Assembly: GCA_949287505.1 (NCBI GenBank) | Contig: CASEGX010000010.1 | Span: forward strand, 3,297-67,296 | Direction: 5' to 3' | Source of the DNA: an uncultured Spirochaetales bacterium | GTDB taxonomy: Bacteria > Spirochaetota > Spirochaetia > Sphaerochaetales > Sphaerochaetaceae | DNA length: 64,000 bases | Shown: one piece after another, positions 25,151-31,707 of the stretch | How the letters are laid out: the number at the start of each line of letters is the position of its first letter | Position numbering within the stretch: position 1 is the first letter of the stretch | Program-made: the position numbers and the translations under genes | The notes under the pieces: generated by a model | What the model saw: the letters and a program-made list of their open reading frames with translations, nothing else | Databases searched by the model: none | What the model was told of the DNA's origin: nothing

Positions 25151-27304
25151 ATGAGATTCAGGAATGGTTTCTGGCACCTAGATGAGGGTGTTACCCTTTA
25201 TTCTGAGAAAAACTATTTTGAAAGCGAGGAGAGTGACGGGAAACTGTCACTCTTTTCATCAGCCTACCCTATCAGCTGTCGCAATGACACACTTAACAAC
25301 CCTGTCATCACGACAGAAATATCTGCAGTATGCCGCAACGTGCTGCGCGTCGACATCTACCATCATAAAGGTTCTGTAAAGGCAAAGCCATTTCCTGCCA
25401 TTTCCAGTACCGCTCCAGATGAAGAAGGAAAGGACTACATCGTCTCGGGAGACCTCCGCGCAGAGCTGAAGGATGGAGAGCTATGCTTTTCATACAAGGG
25501 CAAAGAGCTTACCAGACGCTTTTCCAGGCTTTCCGGCTGTATGACCACACCATGAGGCAGATACATGGCGGAATACCTCACTACGGACATCGGGGAAACA
25601 TACTACGGACTCGGGGAAAGATTCACAGCCTTCGTGAAAAACGGGCAGAAGGTGGATATGTGGAATCTCGACAGCGGCTGCTCAAGCGAGATGTCTCATA
25701 AGAATGTCCCGTTCTTTGTCTCTTCAAAGAATTATGGAGTTCTTGTACTCAGCTACGGGAAGGTTTCGTTTGAGATGGGAAGCGAGGTTGCAGAATGCGC
25801 ACAGTTCTCTGTTCCCGGTGAGCATATCGCATACTGTGTAATCGGAGGAGAAAATCTCAAGGATGTCGTCTCTGCATACACAGGAATCACAGGGCGTCCG
25901 GCAATGCCTCCTGCATGGTCATTCGGACTCTGGCTCTCGACTTCTTTTGCAACCGACTACAGCGAAGAGACTGTGATGTCTTTCATCGACAAGATGAAGG
26001 CGTACGACATACCGCTCTCTGTCTTCCATTTCGATTGTTTCTGGATGAAGGAATTCCAGTGGACTGATTTCATATGGGACAAAAGAATGTTTCCGAATCC
26101 GGAAGGATTATTATAAAAATTACATAATCGCGGCTTAAAGGTCAGCGTATGGATAAATCCTTACATTGCACAGAAATCACGGTTATTTGACGAAGGAATG
26201 GAACATGGATATTTCCTGAAGAGAAAGGATGGCAGTGTCTGGCAGTGTGATGTCTGGCAGGCAGGAATGGCTATTGTTGATTTCACGAATCCTGAAGCTG
26301 TGAGGTGGTATCAAGGGTACCTCGGGAAGCTTATGGACATGGGCGTAGATTGCTTCAAGACAGACTTCGGAGAGAACATCCCGACAGATGACGTGGTTTG
26401 GTATGACGATTCGGATCCTGCATTGATGCATAACAGATACACATACCTATACAACCAGACTGTATTTGAACTCGAGAGGGAAAAGAAAGGAGATGAAGCA
26501 ATTGTCTTCACACGTTCTGGGACAATCGGAAGCCAGTCCTTCCCTGTACACTGGGCTGGAGATAATGTAGCTTCATACATCTCGATGGCAGAAACACTCA
26601 GAGGTGGCCTGTCGCTTGCTTTCTCCGGCTTTGGTTTCTGGAGCCATGACATAGGTGGGTTCGAAGACAACACGACCCCGGATCTCTTCAAGCGATGGAT
26701 AGCTTTCGGCCTCCTCTCATCCCATTCAAGACTTCATGGAAGCTCTTCTTACAGAGTTCCATGGGCATTCGATGAGGAAGCCTGCCGTGTCACATCCTTC
26801 TTCACACACCTGAAGGAAAGCCTGCTGCCATATCTGCTGCATTATGGAGAAGAGGCTCACAGGACAGGAATACCTATACTCCGCTCAATGGTACTGGAAT
26901 TCGGCACAGATGACGAGACCATCAAATATCTGGATCTGCAGTATATGCTGGGACCATCACTTCTGGTCGCTCCGGTATTCAACAAGGAAGGAGAAGGACG
27001 CTGTTATCTTCCTGCAGGGAGATGGGTCTCACTTCTTGACGGAAGCTCGGAAAATGGCAGCACATGGATAAAAAGGAAATATGACTATTTCTCACTGCCT
27101 CTGTATGTACGAGAGAATTCAATCATCCCGATGGAGAAAGACGGGGAAAAGGTTCTGCTTGCCTGCAATGTATCGGATGCTGTCCTTGAGGGAATTGCTT
27201 CAATTCACGGAAAGGATATAAAGGTCTTCGACAACGCGTACAGAAAACTCATCCTGATAACCTCAGAAGGAGAAAGCAGCAAGAAAGAAACCATCACACT
27301 CTGA
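25151..27304 (+). pseudogene. GH31 alpha-xylosidase/alpha-glucosidase (YicI-like) interrupted by two in-frame stop codons
   Basis: Track ORFs 25151-25555, 25565-26116 and 26198-27304 all lie in one frame. The stops are TGA 25553-25555 and TAA 26114-26116. The translation stays collinear with E. coli YicI as I recall it (GETYYGLGERF, WSFGLWLSTSF, FHFDCFWMK, KVSVWINPYI, CFKTDFGE, WSHDIGGF), including the segments between the ORFs. Confidence 0.8.
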
Positions 27305-27344
27305 GATGTTTTCTATACTGTAATCTGCATGTGAATTCAAACGG

Positions 27345-27369
27345 CTCCGGATCAAACAACAATCCGGAG
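27345..27369 (+). terminator. hairpin CTCCGGAT-9 nt-ATCCGGAG after the GH31 gene
   Basis: 8-bp perfect stem. The U-tract (TCTGTAAT) is weak. Confidence 0.45.
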
Positions 27370-27484
27370 TCTGTAATGCACAACCCCTCTGATACAAAAG
27401 AATCAAATGATAAAACAAAGCCTCGCAATTACATATGCATAAAAAGAAGGCAAACCGCTTACCGTGTATAGCAGTGCCATATAA

Positions 27485-27742
27485 TTGATTTTGGCTGATC
27501 CTGATATACATTCCGGATTATCTTATGTGGTTCAGGAATTGGGCAGTCCAGATGGAACGTATACCAACGAAAATGGCAACATCGTAATAGAATACTATAA
27601 CTATCGTGTGGATGGATTATCTTGGGATAGAGGTGATTTCTACATAGAATTTGATAAAGATTACAAAGTTGTTGTATATGGGGCAAAAAAAGTGAGAACA
27701 GTAAATATTCCGATATCTTATAATCTTACATCTTTGATATAA
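27485..27742 (+). CDS. possible gene remnant (85 codons, no signal peptide or RBS)
   Basis: The ORF opens right after an in-frame TAA. Its 5' flank is homologous to the 5' UTR/RBS region of the 28326 gene, but the RBS is mutated. Confidence 0.25.
   Translation: MILADPDIHSGLSYVVQELGSPDGTYTNENGNIVIEYYNYRVDGLSWDRGDFYIEFDKDYKVVVYGAKKVRTVNIPISYNLTSLI
27493..27525 (+). repeat. 5' cassette repeat, copy A (GGCTGATCCTGATATACATTCCGGATTATCTTA)
   Basis: Aligns with 28283-28314 with a few mismatches and a 1-nt indel. Confidence 0.7.
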
Positions 27743-27913
27743 GCCGGACCTATACCCGGCTTCTCAAAGACTTTCATTCCATTATCCATTCATCTGGAAT
27801 CATTTCAGTCTATCTATCTACAGTTCTTTTATTTATCCATTTATCAATCAGCTGTTATTTTCAGGCAACCGATGGGTAGTCAAGGAATAAATCATACAGG
27901 ACGCAAATTTCTT

Positions 27914-27942
27914 CCGCATCGGATAACTCCGGTGCGGTTTTT
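27914..27942 (+). terminator. strong intrinsic terminator inside repeat A
   Basis: CCGCATCGGA-taac-TCCGGTGCGG (10 bp including one G-U pair) followed by TTTTT. Confidence 0.75.
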
Positions 27943-27943
27943 C

Positions 27944-27972
27944 TTGACTCTCAGGCTCATCATTATGATAAT
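27944..27972 (+). promoter_or_regulatory. promoter TTGACT-17 nt-GATAAT (candidate antitoxin sRNA promoter)
   Basis: Hexamers at 27944-27949 and 27967-27972. The arrangement is conserved in repeat B as TTGCCT-17 nt-GATAAT. Confidence 0.5.
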
Positions 27973-27978
27973 TGAGAT

Positions 27979-28062
27979 AGAAAGAGGCACTGCCGATGAA
28001 CGGTAGCCTCATCCGATTAAGAACGACATAAGCCGCCCACCGGTCAAAGCAGGGCGGCTTAT
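27979..28062 (+). ncRNA. candidate ~85-nt antisense sRNA convergent with the toxin-like gene
   Basis: It is predicted from the promoter above and the hairpin at 28028-28062. It has an internal hairpin GAGGC(ac)TGCCG-atgaa-CGGTAGCCTC. It would be complementary to the stop codon and terminator region of the minus-strand peptide mRNA. Confidence 0.35.
28028..28062. terminator. GC-rich hairpin ATAAGCCGCCC-13 nt-GGGCGGCTTAT, potentially a bidirectional terminator
   Basis: 11-bp perfect stem. On the minus strand it is followed by GTCGTTCTTAAT. The stop codon of the peptide ORF lies inside the stem. Confidence 0.6.
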
Positions 28063-28127
28063 CTTATGACTGCTATTACCAAACCTATGATTGCGATGAC
28101 AACCATAAGCAATTCATAATCACTCAC
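28059..28127 (-). CDS. 22-aa hydrophobic peptide, type I toxin / holin-like toxin (Hol-Tox-like) candidate
   Basis: My own translation gives GTG AGT GAT TAT GAA TTG CTT ATG GTT GTC ATC GCA ATC ATA GGT TTG GTA ATA GCA GTC ATA AGA TAA, i.e. (M)SDYELLMVVIAIIGLVIAVIR. AGGAGG lies 9 nt upstream. It is below the ORF-track size cutoff. Confidence 0.6.
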   Translation of the reverse strand: MSDYELLMVVIAIIGLVIAVIR

Positions 28128-28242
28128 CAGACATCACCTCCTTCATCAGCGTAAGACGCGAATCGGGAAGCAACGCCTCCCGATATCCATTGCTGTATTC
28201 CCGAGAGGCTACCGTCCACCATTACATGGCAGTACCGATTGA

Positions 28243-28271
28243 ATAATATTTCATCAACAAAGCACTGTCAA
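28243..28271 (-). promoter_or_regulatory. near-consensus promoter TTGACA-17 nt-TATTAT for the peptide gene
   Basis: Read on the minus strand (-35 at 28271-28266, -10 at 28248-28243). It predicts a leader of roughly 100 nt containing the hairpin at 28164-28182. Confidence 0.6.
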
Positions 28272-28282
28272 ACTTGCTTTCA

Positions 28283-28314
28283 GGCTGATACTGATATACA
28301 TCCGGATTTTCTTA
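28283..28314 (+). repeat. 5' cassette repeat, copy B
   Basis: GGCTGATACTGATATACATCCGGATTTTCTTA, followed by AGGAGGGG and GTG 28326. Confidence 0.7.
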
Positions 28315-28325
28315 GGAGGGGTCAA

Positions 28326-28907
28326 GTGAAACGCTTTTTGTTAATGATTGCAATATTAAGTACAATCACCCCATTATTTGCAGCTAATGACATATCAAAA
28401 TTATCATCCGAAGCACAATTAGAATATCTCCCTAATGCATTATCTATACAGACGACAGATTCAATGCAGTCTATAGGCTCAGGATTTGGAAATGTATATA
28501 ATTCTGGACTTATAACATCCTTGTCAGCAACTAACAGCTCAATATCCACAGAATGGTATCCATATTTAGGAGCATCAGAAATAGATAGAAAAACATTTTA
28601 TCAACTTACTGAACAAACAGATCTGTACAACGATTATGTAAATGGAATGAAAAAACAAAATACCATGAATGCATGTGGATGGGCTTTGTTTGTAGCGACA
28701 GCTATAGGTGGTACAGCATTAACAAAATATGGAATATACGATGATTATAATACGTTGTTTGCATATTCTGGATTAGGATTACTGATTATAGGAGGACTTG
28801 CCTCATTGCCTTTGGTAAGTTGGCAGTATAATGATAATGTTTCAATATCATTTGCAGTCGGATTATCAGATATATATAACAACAAATTATATGAATCACT
28901 TAAATAA
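28326..28907 (+). CDS. AT-rich orphan secreted/membrane protein (signal peptide plus C-terminal hydrophobic segments)
   Basis: AGGAGGGG lies 4 nt before GTG 28326. The product reads (M)KRFLLMIAILSTITPLFAAND... Two C-terminal hydrophobic stretches are present (ACGWALFVATAIGGTAL, YSGLGLLIIGGLASLPLV). The track's longer 28239 start lacks an RBS. Confidence 0.65.
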   Translation: MKRFLLMIAILSTITPLFAANDISKLSSEAQLEYLPNALSIQTTDSMQSIGSGFGNVYNSGLITSLSATNSSISTEWYPYLGASEIDRKTFYQLTEQTDLYNDYVNGMKKQNTMNACGWALFVATAIGGTALTKYGIYDDYNTLFAYSGLGLLIIGGLASLPLVSWQYNDNVSISFAVGLSDIYNNKLYESLK

Positions 28908-29172
28908 GTATCAGCCTGGCTTATACCCGACCTCTCAGTGACTCACCTTCCATTATCCATTCATCTGGAATCATTTCAGTAATCTATCTATAGTTCTTTT
29001 ATCTATCAGCTGTTATTTTTCAGGCAACCGATGGGTAGTCAATGAATGAATCATACAGGACGCAAATTCCTTACGCAGCAGGTAACTCAGGTGCGGTTTT
29101 TATTGCCTAAACGTTTCTTGATTACGATAATTTTTAACAGAAGCTGTACTGCCGACAGATGGCAAGCTTTCC
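28908..29172 (+). repeat. 3' cassette repeat, copy B
   Basis: Direct repeat of 27741-28012. Its terminator hairpin (about 29074-29096) is degenerate compared with copy A. Confidence 0.8.
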
Positions 29173-29283
29173 AAGGCCAGGAGCTAAAACCGTTCGTTTA
29201 TAGCCGTACCAAGTGGATTTCAAGTGAGGCTTATGAACATTGTCAAACAACATTATTCTTGTTGGTATCTGACCTGTATCAGA

Positions 29284-30084
29284 CTATGCTTTCACAGATT
29301 TCACTAATGAAGCGACGATAAAAATCACCATATGCACCACCACGATGCTTGCACCTGTCGGAAGAGAGAATGCATATGAAAGGAGAAAACCTGCAAGGAA
29401 TGCAATCAAAGCCTCTGCAGCCGCAACTACGGATACCTTCAGATATGTCTTCTCAATCTTCATGGCAACTGCCGCAGGAAAAATGATCAGGCTGGAAATC
29501 AGAAGAGAGCCAAGAATTCTCATTCCGACTACAATCACAAGCGCAGTAAGCAGAGACAGTAAAGCTGTATAACGCCTCGTGTTTATTCCTGTTGCTCTTG
29601 CAAAGGAAGAGTCAAATGTCGTGGCATAGATCTGATGATAGAAAATCACATAGGAAAAAAGTGTGGCTATTGAGATTACGGCAGCAATCACTCCATCGGT
29701 TTTTGAAACAGAAAGAATGGAGCCGAAAAGAAATGCATTCAGGTCAGTATTCACTCCCGCAATCGAGACTGCAATGACACCGAGTGCAAGTGCAGAAGAA
29801 GATATAAGTGCAATCGCACTGTCGCCACCGCGCTTACCTTCTGAAATACGAAGCAATACAAAAGCAGCTATCACTACAACAGGGATCGTGACCACCATCG
29901 GTTGCAGGGAAAGAAGGGCCGAAAGTCCCAATGCGCCGAACCCTACATGAGACAGTCCGTCTCCGATCATCGAAAAGCGTCTGAGCACAAGACTCACACC
30001 CAATAAGGAAGCCGCTATTGAGACACAAAGACCTACAAGCAATGCCCTCACAAGAAATGGATAGGAAAGAATCTCACTTATCAT
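29284..30084 (-). CDS. znuB: metal (zinc) ABC transporter permease, ABC-3 family
   Basis: 266-aa polytopic protein in an operon with the ATPase and a ZnuA-like SBP. Confidence 0.88.
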   Translation of the reverse strand: MISEILSYPFLVRALLVGLCVSIAASLLGVSLVLRRFSMIGDGLSHVGFGALGLSALLSLQPMVVTIPVVVIAAFVLLRISEGKRGGDSAIALISSSALALGVIAVSIAGVNTDLNAFLFGSILSVSKTDGVIAAVISIATLFSYVIFYHQIYATTFDSSFARATGINTRRYTALLSLLTALVIVVGMRILGSLLISSLIIFPAAVAMKIEKTYLKVSVVAAAEALIAFLAGFLLSYAFSLPTGASIVVVHMVIFIVASLVKSVKA

Positions 30085-30781
30085 GCCCTGCCTCCTTCAT
30101 GAAAGTCTTACCTGCATCGGAGTGAAAATACTTCTCCTTAGGGCCGAAGAAATAACCGTTATGGGAGAAGTGGAGTATTGTGCGTGCATCATGCAGAACC
30201 GGATGAATGTCATGGGTAACCATCATTATCGTGATTCCCGAAGCATTCAGATTACGCAGAATTCCGTACAGCTCACTTGTAGTCTTCACATCAAGATTGG
30301 CAACAGGCTCATCAAGGAATATGAGCTTCTCAGTCGCCATGAGCGCTCTGGCAAGCAACACCCTCTGCTGCTGTCCACCGGAGAGTTCCTGGAAAGAAAC
30401 TGAAGCGTAGCCAGACATGCCCATTCTCTCAAGCTCCTCTGAAGCTCTCTTTTTTTCCGCTTTTGTATAGAACAAGGCCCTGTGTCTGTTGAGGCAGCCG
30501 GAAAGAACAACCTCCATCACAGAGGAGGGGAAATCACGCTGTATGCCGGAAACCTGCGGGAAATACCCTATTTCAGTCCTTTTCAGGCCACCGCAGTATT
30601 CAATTCTTCCTTTCAGGGGCTCAACCAGGCCAAGAACGGTTTTCACGAAGGTGCTTTTCCCAGAGCCATTCTCACCGACGATGCAGAGATAGTCTCCATC
30701 ACTGACAGAGAATGAGAGTCCGGAGATAATTCCCTGCCCCTCATAACCAAGTGTCAGATCCTCTCCATGTATCAGTATCAA
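30074..30781 (-). CDS. znuC: metal (zinc) ABC transporter ATP-binding protein
   Basis: Walker A GENGSGKST, signature LSGGQQQR and Walker B LIFLDEP. Confidence 0.92.
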   Translation of the reverse strand: MILIHGEDLTLGYEGQGIISGLSFSVSDGDYLCIVGENGSGKSTFVKTVLGLVEPLKGRIEYCGGLKRTEIGYFPQVSGIQRDFPSSVMEVVLSGCLNRHRALFYTKAEKKRASEELERMGMSGYASVSFQELSGGQQQRVLLARALMATEKLIFLDEPVANLDVKTTSELYGILRNLNASGITIMMVTHDIHPVLHDARTILHFSHNGYFFGPKEKYFHSDAGKTFMKEAGHDK

Positions 30782-31707
30782 TTCAAAGCCTCCTGCAGCA
30801 CACTGATGTTCTCACCCATCAGATCAACATAATCCTTGCCGCTCAGATAATCAGCAGCACTGACATTGTGAAGTGTATTGAAAACCCTCACCCCGCATCC
30901 CGCCTCTTCTGCAATGACACGGGCTATCATCGGAGAGGACATCTCTATTGTCAGAATACACGGGACTTCAAGTTCTCTTGCCTTATCGATAAGGAATGCC
31001 ACCGTACGGGCACTGGGCTCACTTTCCTCTGCACAGCCGGGGAATGCCGCATAATATTCCAGCCCGTATTCGCGGACAAAATACAGAAGAGGAAAACGTG
31101 AGGCGAAAATAAGGATATTTCTCTCAGCACTCTCAACAATGCTTCTGAACTGCCTGTCCAGTTCTTCTATCCTGGAAATATACTCTTCTGCATTTTTCTC
31201 ATAAGAAGCTGCGTTCTCTGCATCAAGGGAGGAAAGGAGACGGGAAAGATTCTCAATGATCCTGATCTCATTCAGAGGGCTCGTCCATACATGCTCATCG
31301 ACTTCATGAACACTGTGATCATGCTCCTCTTCCTCCTCCATGCCTTCCCTGTGCTCCTCATATAGAAGCTCCACCTGGTCGGTAAGCGCAAATGATGATG
31401 GCGGATTATCCAGGGATGATAAAATAGTCCGCACCCACTCATCCGAAGGACCGCCTGTGTAGATGACAAGATCGCTTTCCGCAATTCTCACCATATCACG
31501 CGGAGTCGGATCATAGCTGTGGCTCTCCGTCCCTGGAGGAAGAAGCATCACAAGGTTGTCATCATTCCCGAGAACAGCACGTGCAGCATCAAACGACGGG
31601 AAATCTGCGGCAACAACGGAGAATGCATCATCTGTCTCAATCTGAGTCCTTGCACAGGAAGTGATGACAAGCAATATGACAACAGCAAGAATAAGGGCCC
31701 TTCTCAT
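30778..31707 (-). CDS. znuA: zinc ABC transporter substrate-binding lipoprotein with an acidic/His-rich loop
   Basis: Lipobox LVITSC and a loop EEEEEHDHSVHEVDEHVW typical of ZnuA. ATG 31707 overlaps the zur stop (ATGA). Confidence 0.88.
   Translation of the reverse strand: MRRALILAVVILLVITSCARTQIETDDAFSVVAADFPSFDAARAVLGNDDNLVMLLPPGTESHSYDPTPRDMVRIAESDLVIYTGGPSDEWVRTILSSLDNPPSSFALTDQVELLYEEHREGMEEEEEHDHSVHEVDEHVWTSPLNEIRIIENLSRLLSSLDAENAASYEKNAEEYISRIEELDRQFRSIVESAERNILIFASRFPLLYFVREYGLEYYAAFPGCAEESEPSARTVAFLIDKARELEVPCILTIEMSSPMIARVIAEEAGCGVRVFNTLHNVSAADYLSGKDYVDLMGENISVLQEALN

Follow-up and report, generated by a model that had tools for sequence, protein, structure and literature searches.

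The window analyzed here, a stretch of 64,000 nucleotides from an uncultured Spirochaetales bacterium, contains an AT-rich island, as an earlier note on this DNA had already remarked. The island has a GC fraction of 0.38-0.40 vs ~0.48 in the remaining window and is flanked by a fragmented GH31 gene and an operon of the znuABC type. Within this island, positions 27944-28271 hold an open reading frame (ORF) of 22 codons on the minus strand together with a candidate small RNA on the plus strand. Both probably belong to a self-contained module of ~330 bp of the type I toxin-antitoxin kind, and the best reading of the sequence comparisons is that it represents a family of type I-like modules that is new and unannotated and stands out by its RNA design. 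Its elements are the following:

28266-28271, minus strand: −35 box TTGACA of the toxin promoter (11/12 consensus match, 17-nt spacer)
28243-28248, minus strand: −10 box TATTAT of the toxin promoter, separated from the −35 box by the 17-nt spacer
28203-28236, minus strand: element X, GGUACUGCC-AUGUAAU-GGUGGACGGUAGCCUCUC, the predicted 5' end of the toxin mRNA, which heads every toxin leader
28162-28184, minus strand: leader hairpin AUCGGGAGGC-GUU-GCUUCCCGAU with ten pairs
28137-28142, minus strand: Shine-Dalgarno (SD) sequence AGGAGG, 9 nt 5' of the start codon GTG 28127
28059-28127, minus strand: 22-codon ORF of the candidate toxin, MSDYELLMVVIAIIGLVIAVIR, with GTG start and TAA stop (28061-28059)
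28028-28062, both strands: T1, an 11-bp GC-rich hairpin common to both transcripts, which serves as small-RNA terminator and encloses the toxin stop codon
27974-28027, minus strand: putative 3' tail of the toxin mRNA with its presumed 3' end, a possible second terminator that pairs with X
27979-28070, plus strand: candidate antitoxin small RNA of ~90 nt, its ends placed by promoter and terminator geometry
27944-27972, plus strand: small-RNA promoter TTGACT, 17-nt spacer, GATAAT (10/12 consensus match)

On the toxin strand, the near-consensus promoter that the earlier note had placed at 28271-28243 is the top-scoring promoter-like site of the region 27000-29600 in a promoter scan. Transcription would start near 28236, resulting in a leader of ~109 nt up to the start codon where ~100 nt had been proposed. 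The leader hairpin, previously assigned to 28164-28182, comprises a core of CGGGAGGC (28182-28175), a GUU loop and GCUUCCCG (28171-28164), and its stem extends to 28184-28162. The SD at its distance of 9 nt, the 22-codon ORF and the burial of the stop codon in the 11-bp hairpin 28028-28062, with stem arms AUAAGCCGCCC (28062-28052) and GGGCGGCUUAU (28038-28028), likewise proved to be present. The earlier note had called this architecture complete, which holds for the four elements it listed; the coordinates it gave stop short of the antitoxin and the 3' tail, which adjoin them at 27944-28027.

Taken by itself, the window sequence makes only a suggestive case for a gene, and chance is a possible explanation: the promoter scan found 12 sites where 8.9 are expected in shuffles. 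With a loop of 13 nt and a weak T-run, the T1 hairpin was not called by a simple terminator scan. The −10 box, leader hairpin, SD, ORF and T1 hairpin recur in register, however, across 60-plus homologous loci, and are therefore functional elements rather than chance. In 62 homologous modules, a −10-like box is found at a constant 6 nt 5' of a conserved GGCACUGCC element, with which the leader begins; across the modules element X reads GGCACUGCC-(AUAAAC)-GGUAGGCGG-UUGGCCUC. Among 22 homologues, the leader hairpin displays compensatory changes at five of its ten pairs.

Relatives of the locus were reached via a neighbouring gene encoding a 193-aa protein and then via a DNA motif, the peptide itself being only 22 aa long. 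A conserved homologous peptide in related genomes, the absence of which the earlier note had listed among the findings that would refute its proposal, was indeed found: 34 ORFs are of the window's peptide type (family A), and an SD-preceded ORF of 18-45 codons convergent to the motif is present in 64 of 76 distinct modules. Throughout the family-A alignment GGAGG of the SD is unchanging, and homologues carry ATG at the position of the window's GTG start. Differences among the 34 ORFs are distributed over codon positions 1, 2 and 3 in proportions of 39, 13 and 49 %, with a pooled ratio of nonsynonymous to synonymous polymorphism (pN/pS) of 0.44, and the remaining two reading frames hold stop codons in 34/34 and 21/34 sequences. 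The closest module match to the window, locus L027 (81 % identity), encodes an identical peptide with five synonymous differences, and at L011, a homologous locus of the 193-aa gene, two tandem ORFs of 22-23 codons, MRDYEIIMIVLTVIGLLIAVIR and MTDFELLSLVIAIISLVIIVLKK, occupy the equivalent position and orientation. Judged by this substitution pattern, the ORF is a real gene that evolves as a protein.

The window peptide has a grand average of hydropathy (GRAVY) of 2.0, a hydrophobic core of 16 residues and no proline, and would presumably act at the membrane, like other very small hydrophobic type I toxins. In a search of 5.8 billion proteins, a family-A profile retrieved 243 small proteins (26-71 aa) at E ≤ 1, none of which is named or carries a Pfam domain, and no precomputed Pfam domain is recorded for the 120 best database homologues of the peptide. 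The exact window peptide was not found in a collection of 15 billion proteins, which fits its description as unannotated. Pfam and NCBIfam scans gave no meaningful match for the 22-aa peptide, the 193-aa protein, an 85-aa ORF nearby or a 32-aa ORF upstream of the peptide. Known type I toxin families in Pfam and NCBIfam likewise yielded no match among 36 peptides beyond sub-threshold hits to Hol_Tox.

The upstream 32-aa ORF (28222-28124, minus strand), which overlaps the toxin start as GTGA, was considered as a coupled leader peptide and rejected, because its AUG sits in the loop of X and is missing from most homologues, and because its conserved segment 'WISGGVASRF' merely translates the covarying leader hairpin. 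Hence, this 32-codon frame is probably not a gene. In the metagenome gene calls P0038, P0075 and P0078 it is joined to the toxin ORF.

On the opposite strand, the candidate small RNA is composed of a 5' stem-loop with a motif termed X', GGCACUGCCGAUGAACGGUAGCCUC (27986-28010), then a linker, and finally the GC hairpin T1 with a U-rich stretch behind it on the plus strand. Its promoter is followed by AGAGGCACTGCCGATGAACGG, and the same sequence is found beside the modules of L001, L009 and L011. A promoter of this kind, matching at least 9 of 12 consensus positions at constant distance, precedes the motif in 67 of 76 modules vs 1.6 % of background positions; the pattern is TTGAC(A/T/G)-17-xATAAT, and the −35 box TTGAC(T/A/G) is present in 60/76. 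Sequences 5' of the small-RNA motif cannot be aligned between modules, yet the promoter is kept regardless. On average it is also nearer to consensus than the toxin promoter of the modules compared. The 5' motif itself is invariant in GGCACUGCCGAURRACGG.

The outer pairs of T1 covary (AU 28/UA 20; GC 22/CG 12/AU 12), and wobble pairs in it read U·G on the plus strand, where the toxin strand would have A·C. With hairpins picked independently per strand in the 76 modules, T1 is stabler on the plus (small-RNA) strand in 56 modules and on the minus strand in 19 (p = 3e-7), mean energies being −17.7 vs −15.0 kcal/mol; the T1 of the window is about equally good on both strands. T1 is primarily the terminator of the antisense RNA, and the toxin mRNA, for which the earlier note had expected an end near 28025, probably reads on to ~27975. 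A covariance model of the small RNA scores the window copy at 73.3 bits (E ~1e-13) as the sole intact copy in the window. Rfam gave chance-level matches only at E ≤ 10 in the window, and no match at gathering thresholds in 8 loci. Based on these sequence features it was concluded that 27979 to ~28070 of the plus strand encodes a small RNA of ~90 nt, an antitoxin candidate. Directly upstream, a strong intrinsic terminator at 27914-27937 (plus strand; CCGCATCGG-ATAACT-CCGGTGCGG with T-run) abuts the small-RNA −35 box, an arrangement also seen in L001, L009, L011, L036, L078 and L079, and presumably insulates the small-RNA promoter from upstream transcription.

The two RNA 5' ends of the module are related in sequence. 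Element X is a same-sense copy of the small-RNA motif X' with an additional insertion of 6-9 nt, and the variable tail following (A/G)CGG matches within a locus and differs across loci. Since X is a same-sense copy of X', it is complementary to the toxin-strand DNA just beyond T1. The corresponding 3' tail of the toxin mRNA consists of a linker (28027-28013), the reverse complement of X', GAGGCUACCGUUCAUCGGCAGUGCC (28010-27986), and a U-rich run UCUUUCUAUCUC (27985-27974). In the window, 28218-28205 of X pairs with 28010-27997, and X is paired with 28010-27986 in both minimum free energy (MFE) and alignment-based (RNAalifold) structures.

Comparison of X with X' reveals a strand bias. They differ in 229 of 1829 aligned columns, and 169 of these differences are X=G/X'=A or X=U/X'=C, with only 12 in the reverse direction. 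Such directional differences create G·U pairs on the toxin strand and A·C on the other. Accordingly, the helix core on the toxin strand counts 402 Watson-Crick, 126 G·U and 12 mismatched cells, compared with 129 mismatches on the opposite strand, and the joined helix of X with the reverse complement of X' is stabler on the toxin strand in 64/64 loci (−43.7 vs −34.1 kcal/mol). These strand-specific G·U mismatches indicate selection at the level of RNA. Moreover, RNAalifold applied to 22 full-length family-A transcripts predicted, unguided, a panhandle of 9 + 11 pairs, with 99.2 % of the alignment cells paired and compensatory changes at 8 pairs. In 500 shuffles the observed values were not attained once, and slid controls reached 28-55 % paired cells; an extension of the panhandle past 20 pairs in alignment A5 was unsuccessful, the two sides being out of register. 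The G·U-vs-A·C asymmetry and the covariation together indicate pairing between the 5' end of the mRNA and its 3' tail. Once this tail is left off, (G)CCUCU at the end of X takes the SD GGAGG as its partner in 22/22 sequences, and the window's MFE structure without the tail likewise pairs the anti-SD GCCUCU (28209-28204, within X) with the SD.

Searching a species-representative genome set with the pattern ARAGGCACTGCCGATRRACGG retrieved 75 genome stretches. Uncultured Spirochaetaceae/Spirochaetales of gut or rumen account for most of them, a single genome contributing as many as six. About ten stretches come from Lachnospiraceae or other Clostridia, and two of these ten belong to cultured isolates, namely Lachnospira intestinalis CLA-AA-H89B and 'Bacterium 0.1xD8-71'; Acetatifactor muris shares the peptide encoded at the 0.1xD8-71 locus. 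No match was obtained from viral contigs or from a phage collection, and a plasmid collection gave two chance-level matches only. Across Spirochaetota and Lachnospiraceae, one RNA chassis is combined with four unrelated peptide types, hydrophobic or amphipathic, of 22-39 aa:

Type A: the window's type, 22-32 aa
Type B: MKEILEIILKILEVAKASLSLLRDIKETRHSPKK
Type C: MVLDILLKLADIASKALSLVTAILLFTNNRPGHGKH and MFDLIIKVLEFLVKAMSLASAIWSIINNRPKNSGK
Type D: from Clostridia, MLTIEGLISVLGLCLTCFGLGYAIGSKDNNKPQK and similar

Tandem arrays of 2-4 modules occur in L011, L031, L082 and L057+L015. In the last of these (L057 7121-8000 and L015 1-700; CALXKJ010000005.1), four modules of families A and C alternate, one of them straddling the border of two adjacent tiles, and the array lies ~4 kb from a znu operon syntenic with positions 29443-31623 of the window. 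Roughly a dozen further modules (L009 4865-4975, L039, L041, L047, L062, L071 and others) have the small-RNA promoter, motif and terminator without a recognisable intact ORF and may be orphan antitoxins or decayed toxins; L039 seems to be a frameshifted family-A copy. Neighbouring genes are heterogeneous and mostly of housekeeping type, and show no orientation bias; of 105 flanking ORFs, two have a phage integrase domain and two a Mu-F domain. Such multi-copy occurrence, tandem arrangement, decayed copies and varied neighbours are typical of type I systems. The proposal that a small hydrophobic peptide is encoded here by an unannotated gene with the build of a type I toxin gene gains support, as far as sequence analysis allows, from the conserved coding signature, the covarying hairpin, the multi-copy modules and the antisense RNA. 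Of the general hallmarks of type I systems, the module shows a hydrophobic ORF of <60 aa with an SD, protein-like evolution and, on comparative evidence, an antisense RNA gene with promoter and terminator of its own.

The same coding signature, small RNA and structured leader would fit equally well to a genuine small membrane protein under antisense-RNA control that is non-toxic and has, for example, a regulatory or accessory function. This explanation is rather unlikely, as a single chassis carrying four unrelated peptides of 22-39 aa, tandem arrays, several copies per genome, decayed copies, the lack of a constant partner gene and a doubly sequestered SD are typical of type I systems and unexpected for a dedicated accessory subunit.

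Another explanation takes the peptide for a member of Hol-Tox (PF16935) or a small prophage holin acting in lysis. The likeness noted earlier relates to the N-terminus MSxYExL, the single transmembrane helix and the basic C-terminus. With its acidic start similar to M-S-x-Y-E-x-L, single hydrophobic helix and basic C-terminus, the window peptide does resemble Hol-Tox. Members of that family have ~34-48 aa, compared with 22 aa for the window peptide. Hol-Tox is the most frequent Pfam match among the relatives (4/36, best E 0.052), and some copies of the module reside in prophage-like regions (L009, L011). All these matches are sub-threshold, however, and the window peptide has no PF16935 match even at E ≤ 10, so that membership falls away; the 120 best homologues from the 5.8-billion-protein collection bear no precomputed Pfam domain, the phage and viral collections gave no match, and most copies sit among housekeeping genes. 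Membership in Hol-Tox or a holin function is accordingly very improbable.

Equally poor are the prospects of regarding the plus-strand element as 5' leader or attenuator of the 193-aa gene (28326-28907) instead of an antitoxin. For this gene no own promoter was evident in the promoter scan, and it may therefore depend on read-through from the small-RNA promoter. The module also lies upstream of co-oriented 193-aa homologues in L001, L005 and L011, and L009 retains just the small-RNA part. Across the 75 genome loci, in contrast, only 18 of 45 genes beyond the module run in the direction of the small RNA, the neighbours are unrelated housekeeping genes, and a 193-aa homologue is present only in loci that were retrieved through that very gene; as a general role, a downstream-gene leader was thus rejected. 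Finally, hardly any credence can be given to a mobile repeat resembling a miniature inverted-repeat transposable element with X and X' as terminal inverted repeats and an incidental ORF and 'promoters', for which the size of ~250 bp, the imperfect inverted repeat bounds of ~26 bp and the multi-copy, dispersed intergenic occurrence would speak, since promoter consensus at fixed spacing is kept outside the repeats on both sides despite unalignable flanks, the ORF shows codon periodicity and purifying selection, the repeat mismatches are strand-specific G·U and the hairpins covary.

With a type I-like module as the preferred explanation, a mechanism can be proposed. The toxin mRNA of the minus strand would be a structured RNA of ~215-260 nt, to the 3' end of which the small RNA is fully complementary. 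A fraction of the toxin transcripts may read through T1 and end after the hairpin of the X' complement and its U-run (27985-27974). The resulting 3' tail could then close onto X to form the panhandle, in which the anti-SD tail of X would be locked away. Small RNA and mRNA 5' end would thus compete for one and the same partner in the 3' untranslated region (UTR). As the perfect small-RNA duplex is stabler than the wobble-rich panhandle (−65 vs −46 kcal/mol in the window, a difference of 19; stronger in 64/64 loci by ~17 kcal/mol on average), the small RNA is predicted to displace X. The duplex of the small RNA with the tail and T1 would presumably be an RNase III substrate and be degraded, the freed X tail might re-pair with the ribosome-binding site and shut translation, and the peptide would be made solely once the small RNA is exhausted. 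In silico blocking of the 3' UTR raised the pairing probability P(SD:X) from 0.11 to 0.37 on average over 64 loci, and from 0 to 0.28 in the window.

Several points weigh against this interpretation. Blocking the 3' UTR hardly moves the accessibility of the SD in the window (0.27 to 0.30), and a switch at the SD upon small-RNA binding is therefore only a hypothesis. Read-through into the 3' tail could be infrequent in the window, because its T1 forms a stem free of mismatches whichever strand is transcribed (−19.2 vs −20.9 kcal/mol). The window's toxin promoter (11/12) is also not weaker than its small-RNA promoter (10/12). X and X' form an inverted repeat in DNA as well, and gene conversion could explain some of the covariation; G·U directionality appears to be the sole signal arguing specifically for RNA pairing, and much of it goes back to a small number of conserved positions that many loci have in common by descent. 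Lastly, the labels 'toxin' and 'antitoxin' have been assigned from the architecture alone. In its full extent, comprising an antitoxin of the same sense as the mRNA 5' end, competition of both for a 3'-UTR partner, a chassis reused by at least four unrelated toxic peptides and a crossing between Spirochaetota and Bacillota (Lachnospiraceae) in the gut, the proposal is tentative and on the doubtful side.

Regarding layout, the closest known system is par of plasmid pAD1 (Fst/RNA II) from Enterococcus faecalis. Like the module, par features convergent promoters and a common bidirectional terminator hairpin, helices in its toxin mRNA hide the extreme 5' end and the SD, and its toxin is small and hydrophobic with charged ends, as is the window peptide (PMC7472228). 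In par, however, the repeats DRa and DRb are direct and RNA II is complementary to the translation-initiation region of the toxin, whereas the repeat of the module is inverted, so that the small RNA repeats the sequence of the mRNA 5' end and has its complement in the 3' UTR only. Additionally, the window peptide lacks the PXXXG(C) motif of Fst, and there was neither a Pfam Fst match among the 36 peptides nor an Rfam match. That the small RNA might bind the toxin 5' UTR in trans, as in par or SprA1, was rejected because cognate combinations are no better than non-cognate ones (−31.5 vs −31.2 kcal/mol).

In terms of the proposed mechanism, the 3'-overlapping systems BsrG/SR4 and TxpA/RatA from Bacillus subtilis are the closest functional analogues, because their antitoxins act at the 3' end. 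In SR4/BsrG, bound SR4 acts from the 3' end on the folding of the SD region and brings in an RNase, and of the two promoters that of the antitoxin is the stronger (PMC8167048). These systems differ from the module in that no sequence or family relation is detectable by Pfam, NCBIfam and Rfam, and their toxins have 38-59 aa vs 22 aa in the window. Neither an identity of the antitoxin with the mRNA 5' end nor a 5'-3' panhandle is known from the Bacillus 3'-overlapping systems. Long-range pairing of mRNA 5' and 3' ends (tac-fbi) does control translatability in hok/sok of plasmid R1. The 5'-3' fold-back is what the module shares with hok/sok, its own 3' end being a predicted one. In contrast, the target of Sok is the 5' leader, and hok depends on 3' trimming and on mok, a frame that overlaps it, while in the module the antisense RNA targets the 3' partner and the freed 5' end is predicted to close the SD, not to open it. 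HOK_GEF gave no match among the 36 peptides, and the upstream 32-aa ORF is not conserved. Regarding size, the toxins of Ibs/Sib and ShoB/OhsC from E. coli, with ~19-26 aa and nearly all hydrophobic, resemble the very short and hydrophobic window peptide, to which they bear no sequence relation. Their RNA layout differs as well, since Sib spans the whole ibs ORF and OhsC is divergent.

So far, type I systems have been reported only from Proteobacteria, Firmicutes and Tenericutes, plus one cyanobacterial candidate in 2025, and this narrow range has been attributed to homology-based discovery (PMC12390103). Spirochaetes are not mentioned by Fozo et al. (2010), and literature searches turned up no relevant work on the motif or on type I systems of spirochaetes or Lachnospiraceae. 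If the interpretation is true, the module would be the first type I family described in spirochaetes, and one invisible to current tools, as no Pfam, NCBIfam or Rfam model exists for any of its parts. Its invariant motif of 18-21 nt offers a search handle that retrieves whole modules, new candidate toxin peptides included, and its occurrence in cultured Lachnospiraceae (Lachnospira intestinalis, Acetatifactor muris) makes it accessible to bench testing. An antitoxin carrying the sequence of the mRNA 5' end, with one 3' partner contested by both, would be a new mechanism if confirmed, and might then also serve as a compact design for synthetic RNA switches.

Apart from the intact module, the window contains the remnant of another one:

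29103-29246, both strands: decayed second module, scored by the covariance model at 10.7 bits (29139-29241)

It retains a promoter TTGCCT-17-GATAAT (29103-29131), an X'-like sequence GTACTGCCGACAGATGG (from 29146) and, on the minus strand, a degenerate X (29210-29190), with ORF, leader hairpin and T1 deleted. The 193-aa protein, encoded between both modules on the plus strand, shows a signal-like segment at its N-terminus and two hydrophobic ones at its C-terminus and carries no Pfam domain; only 11 homologues were found among 5.8 billion proteins, and in L009 and L011 the gene is located at junctions of prophage-like blocks. Together with the 85-aa ORF (27485-27742), it shares a 5' flank of ~35 nt and a 3' flank of ~250 nt (83 % identity), the latter ending in terminator, small-RNA promoter and X' motif. 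These cassette-like flanks correspond to 27738-27996 vs 28909-29155 and 27493-27527 vs 28283-28316, and a homologue of the 85-aa ORF region is located beside another module in L036. Further upstream, the GH31 glycoside hydrolase (25151-27304, plus strand) is split into ORFs 25151-25555, 25565-26116 and 26198-27304. Its Pfam GH31 domains run on across the ORF breaks, and the gene is either a pseudogene or affected by assembly frameshifts.

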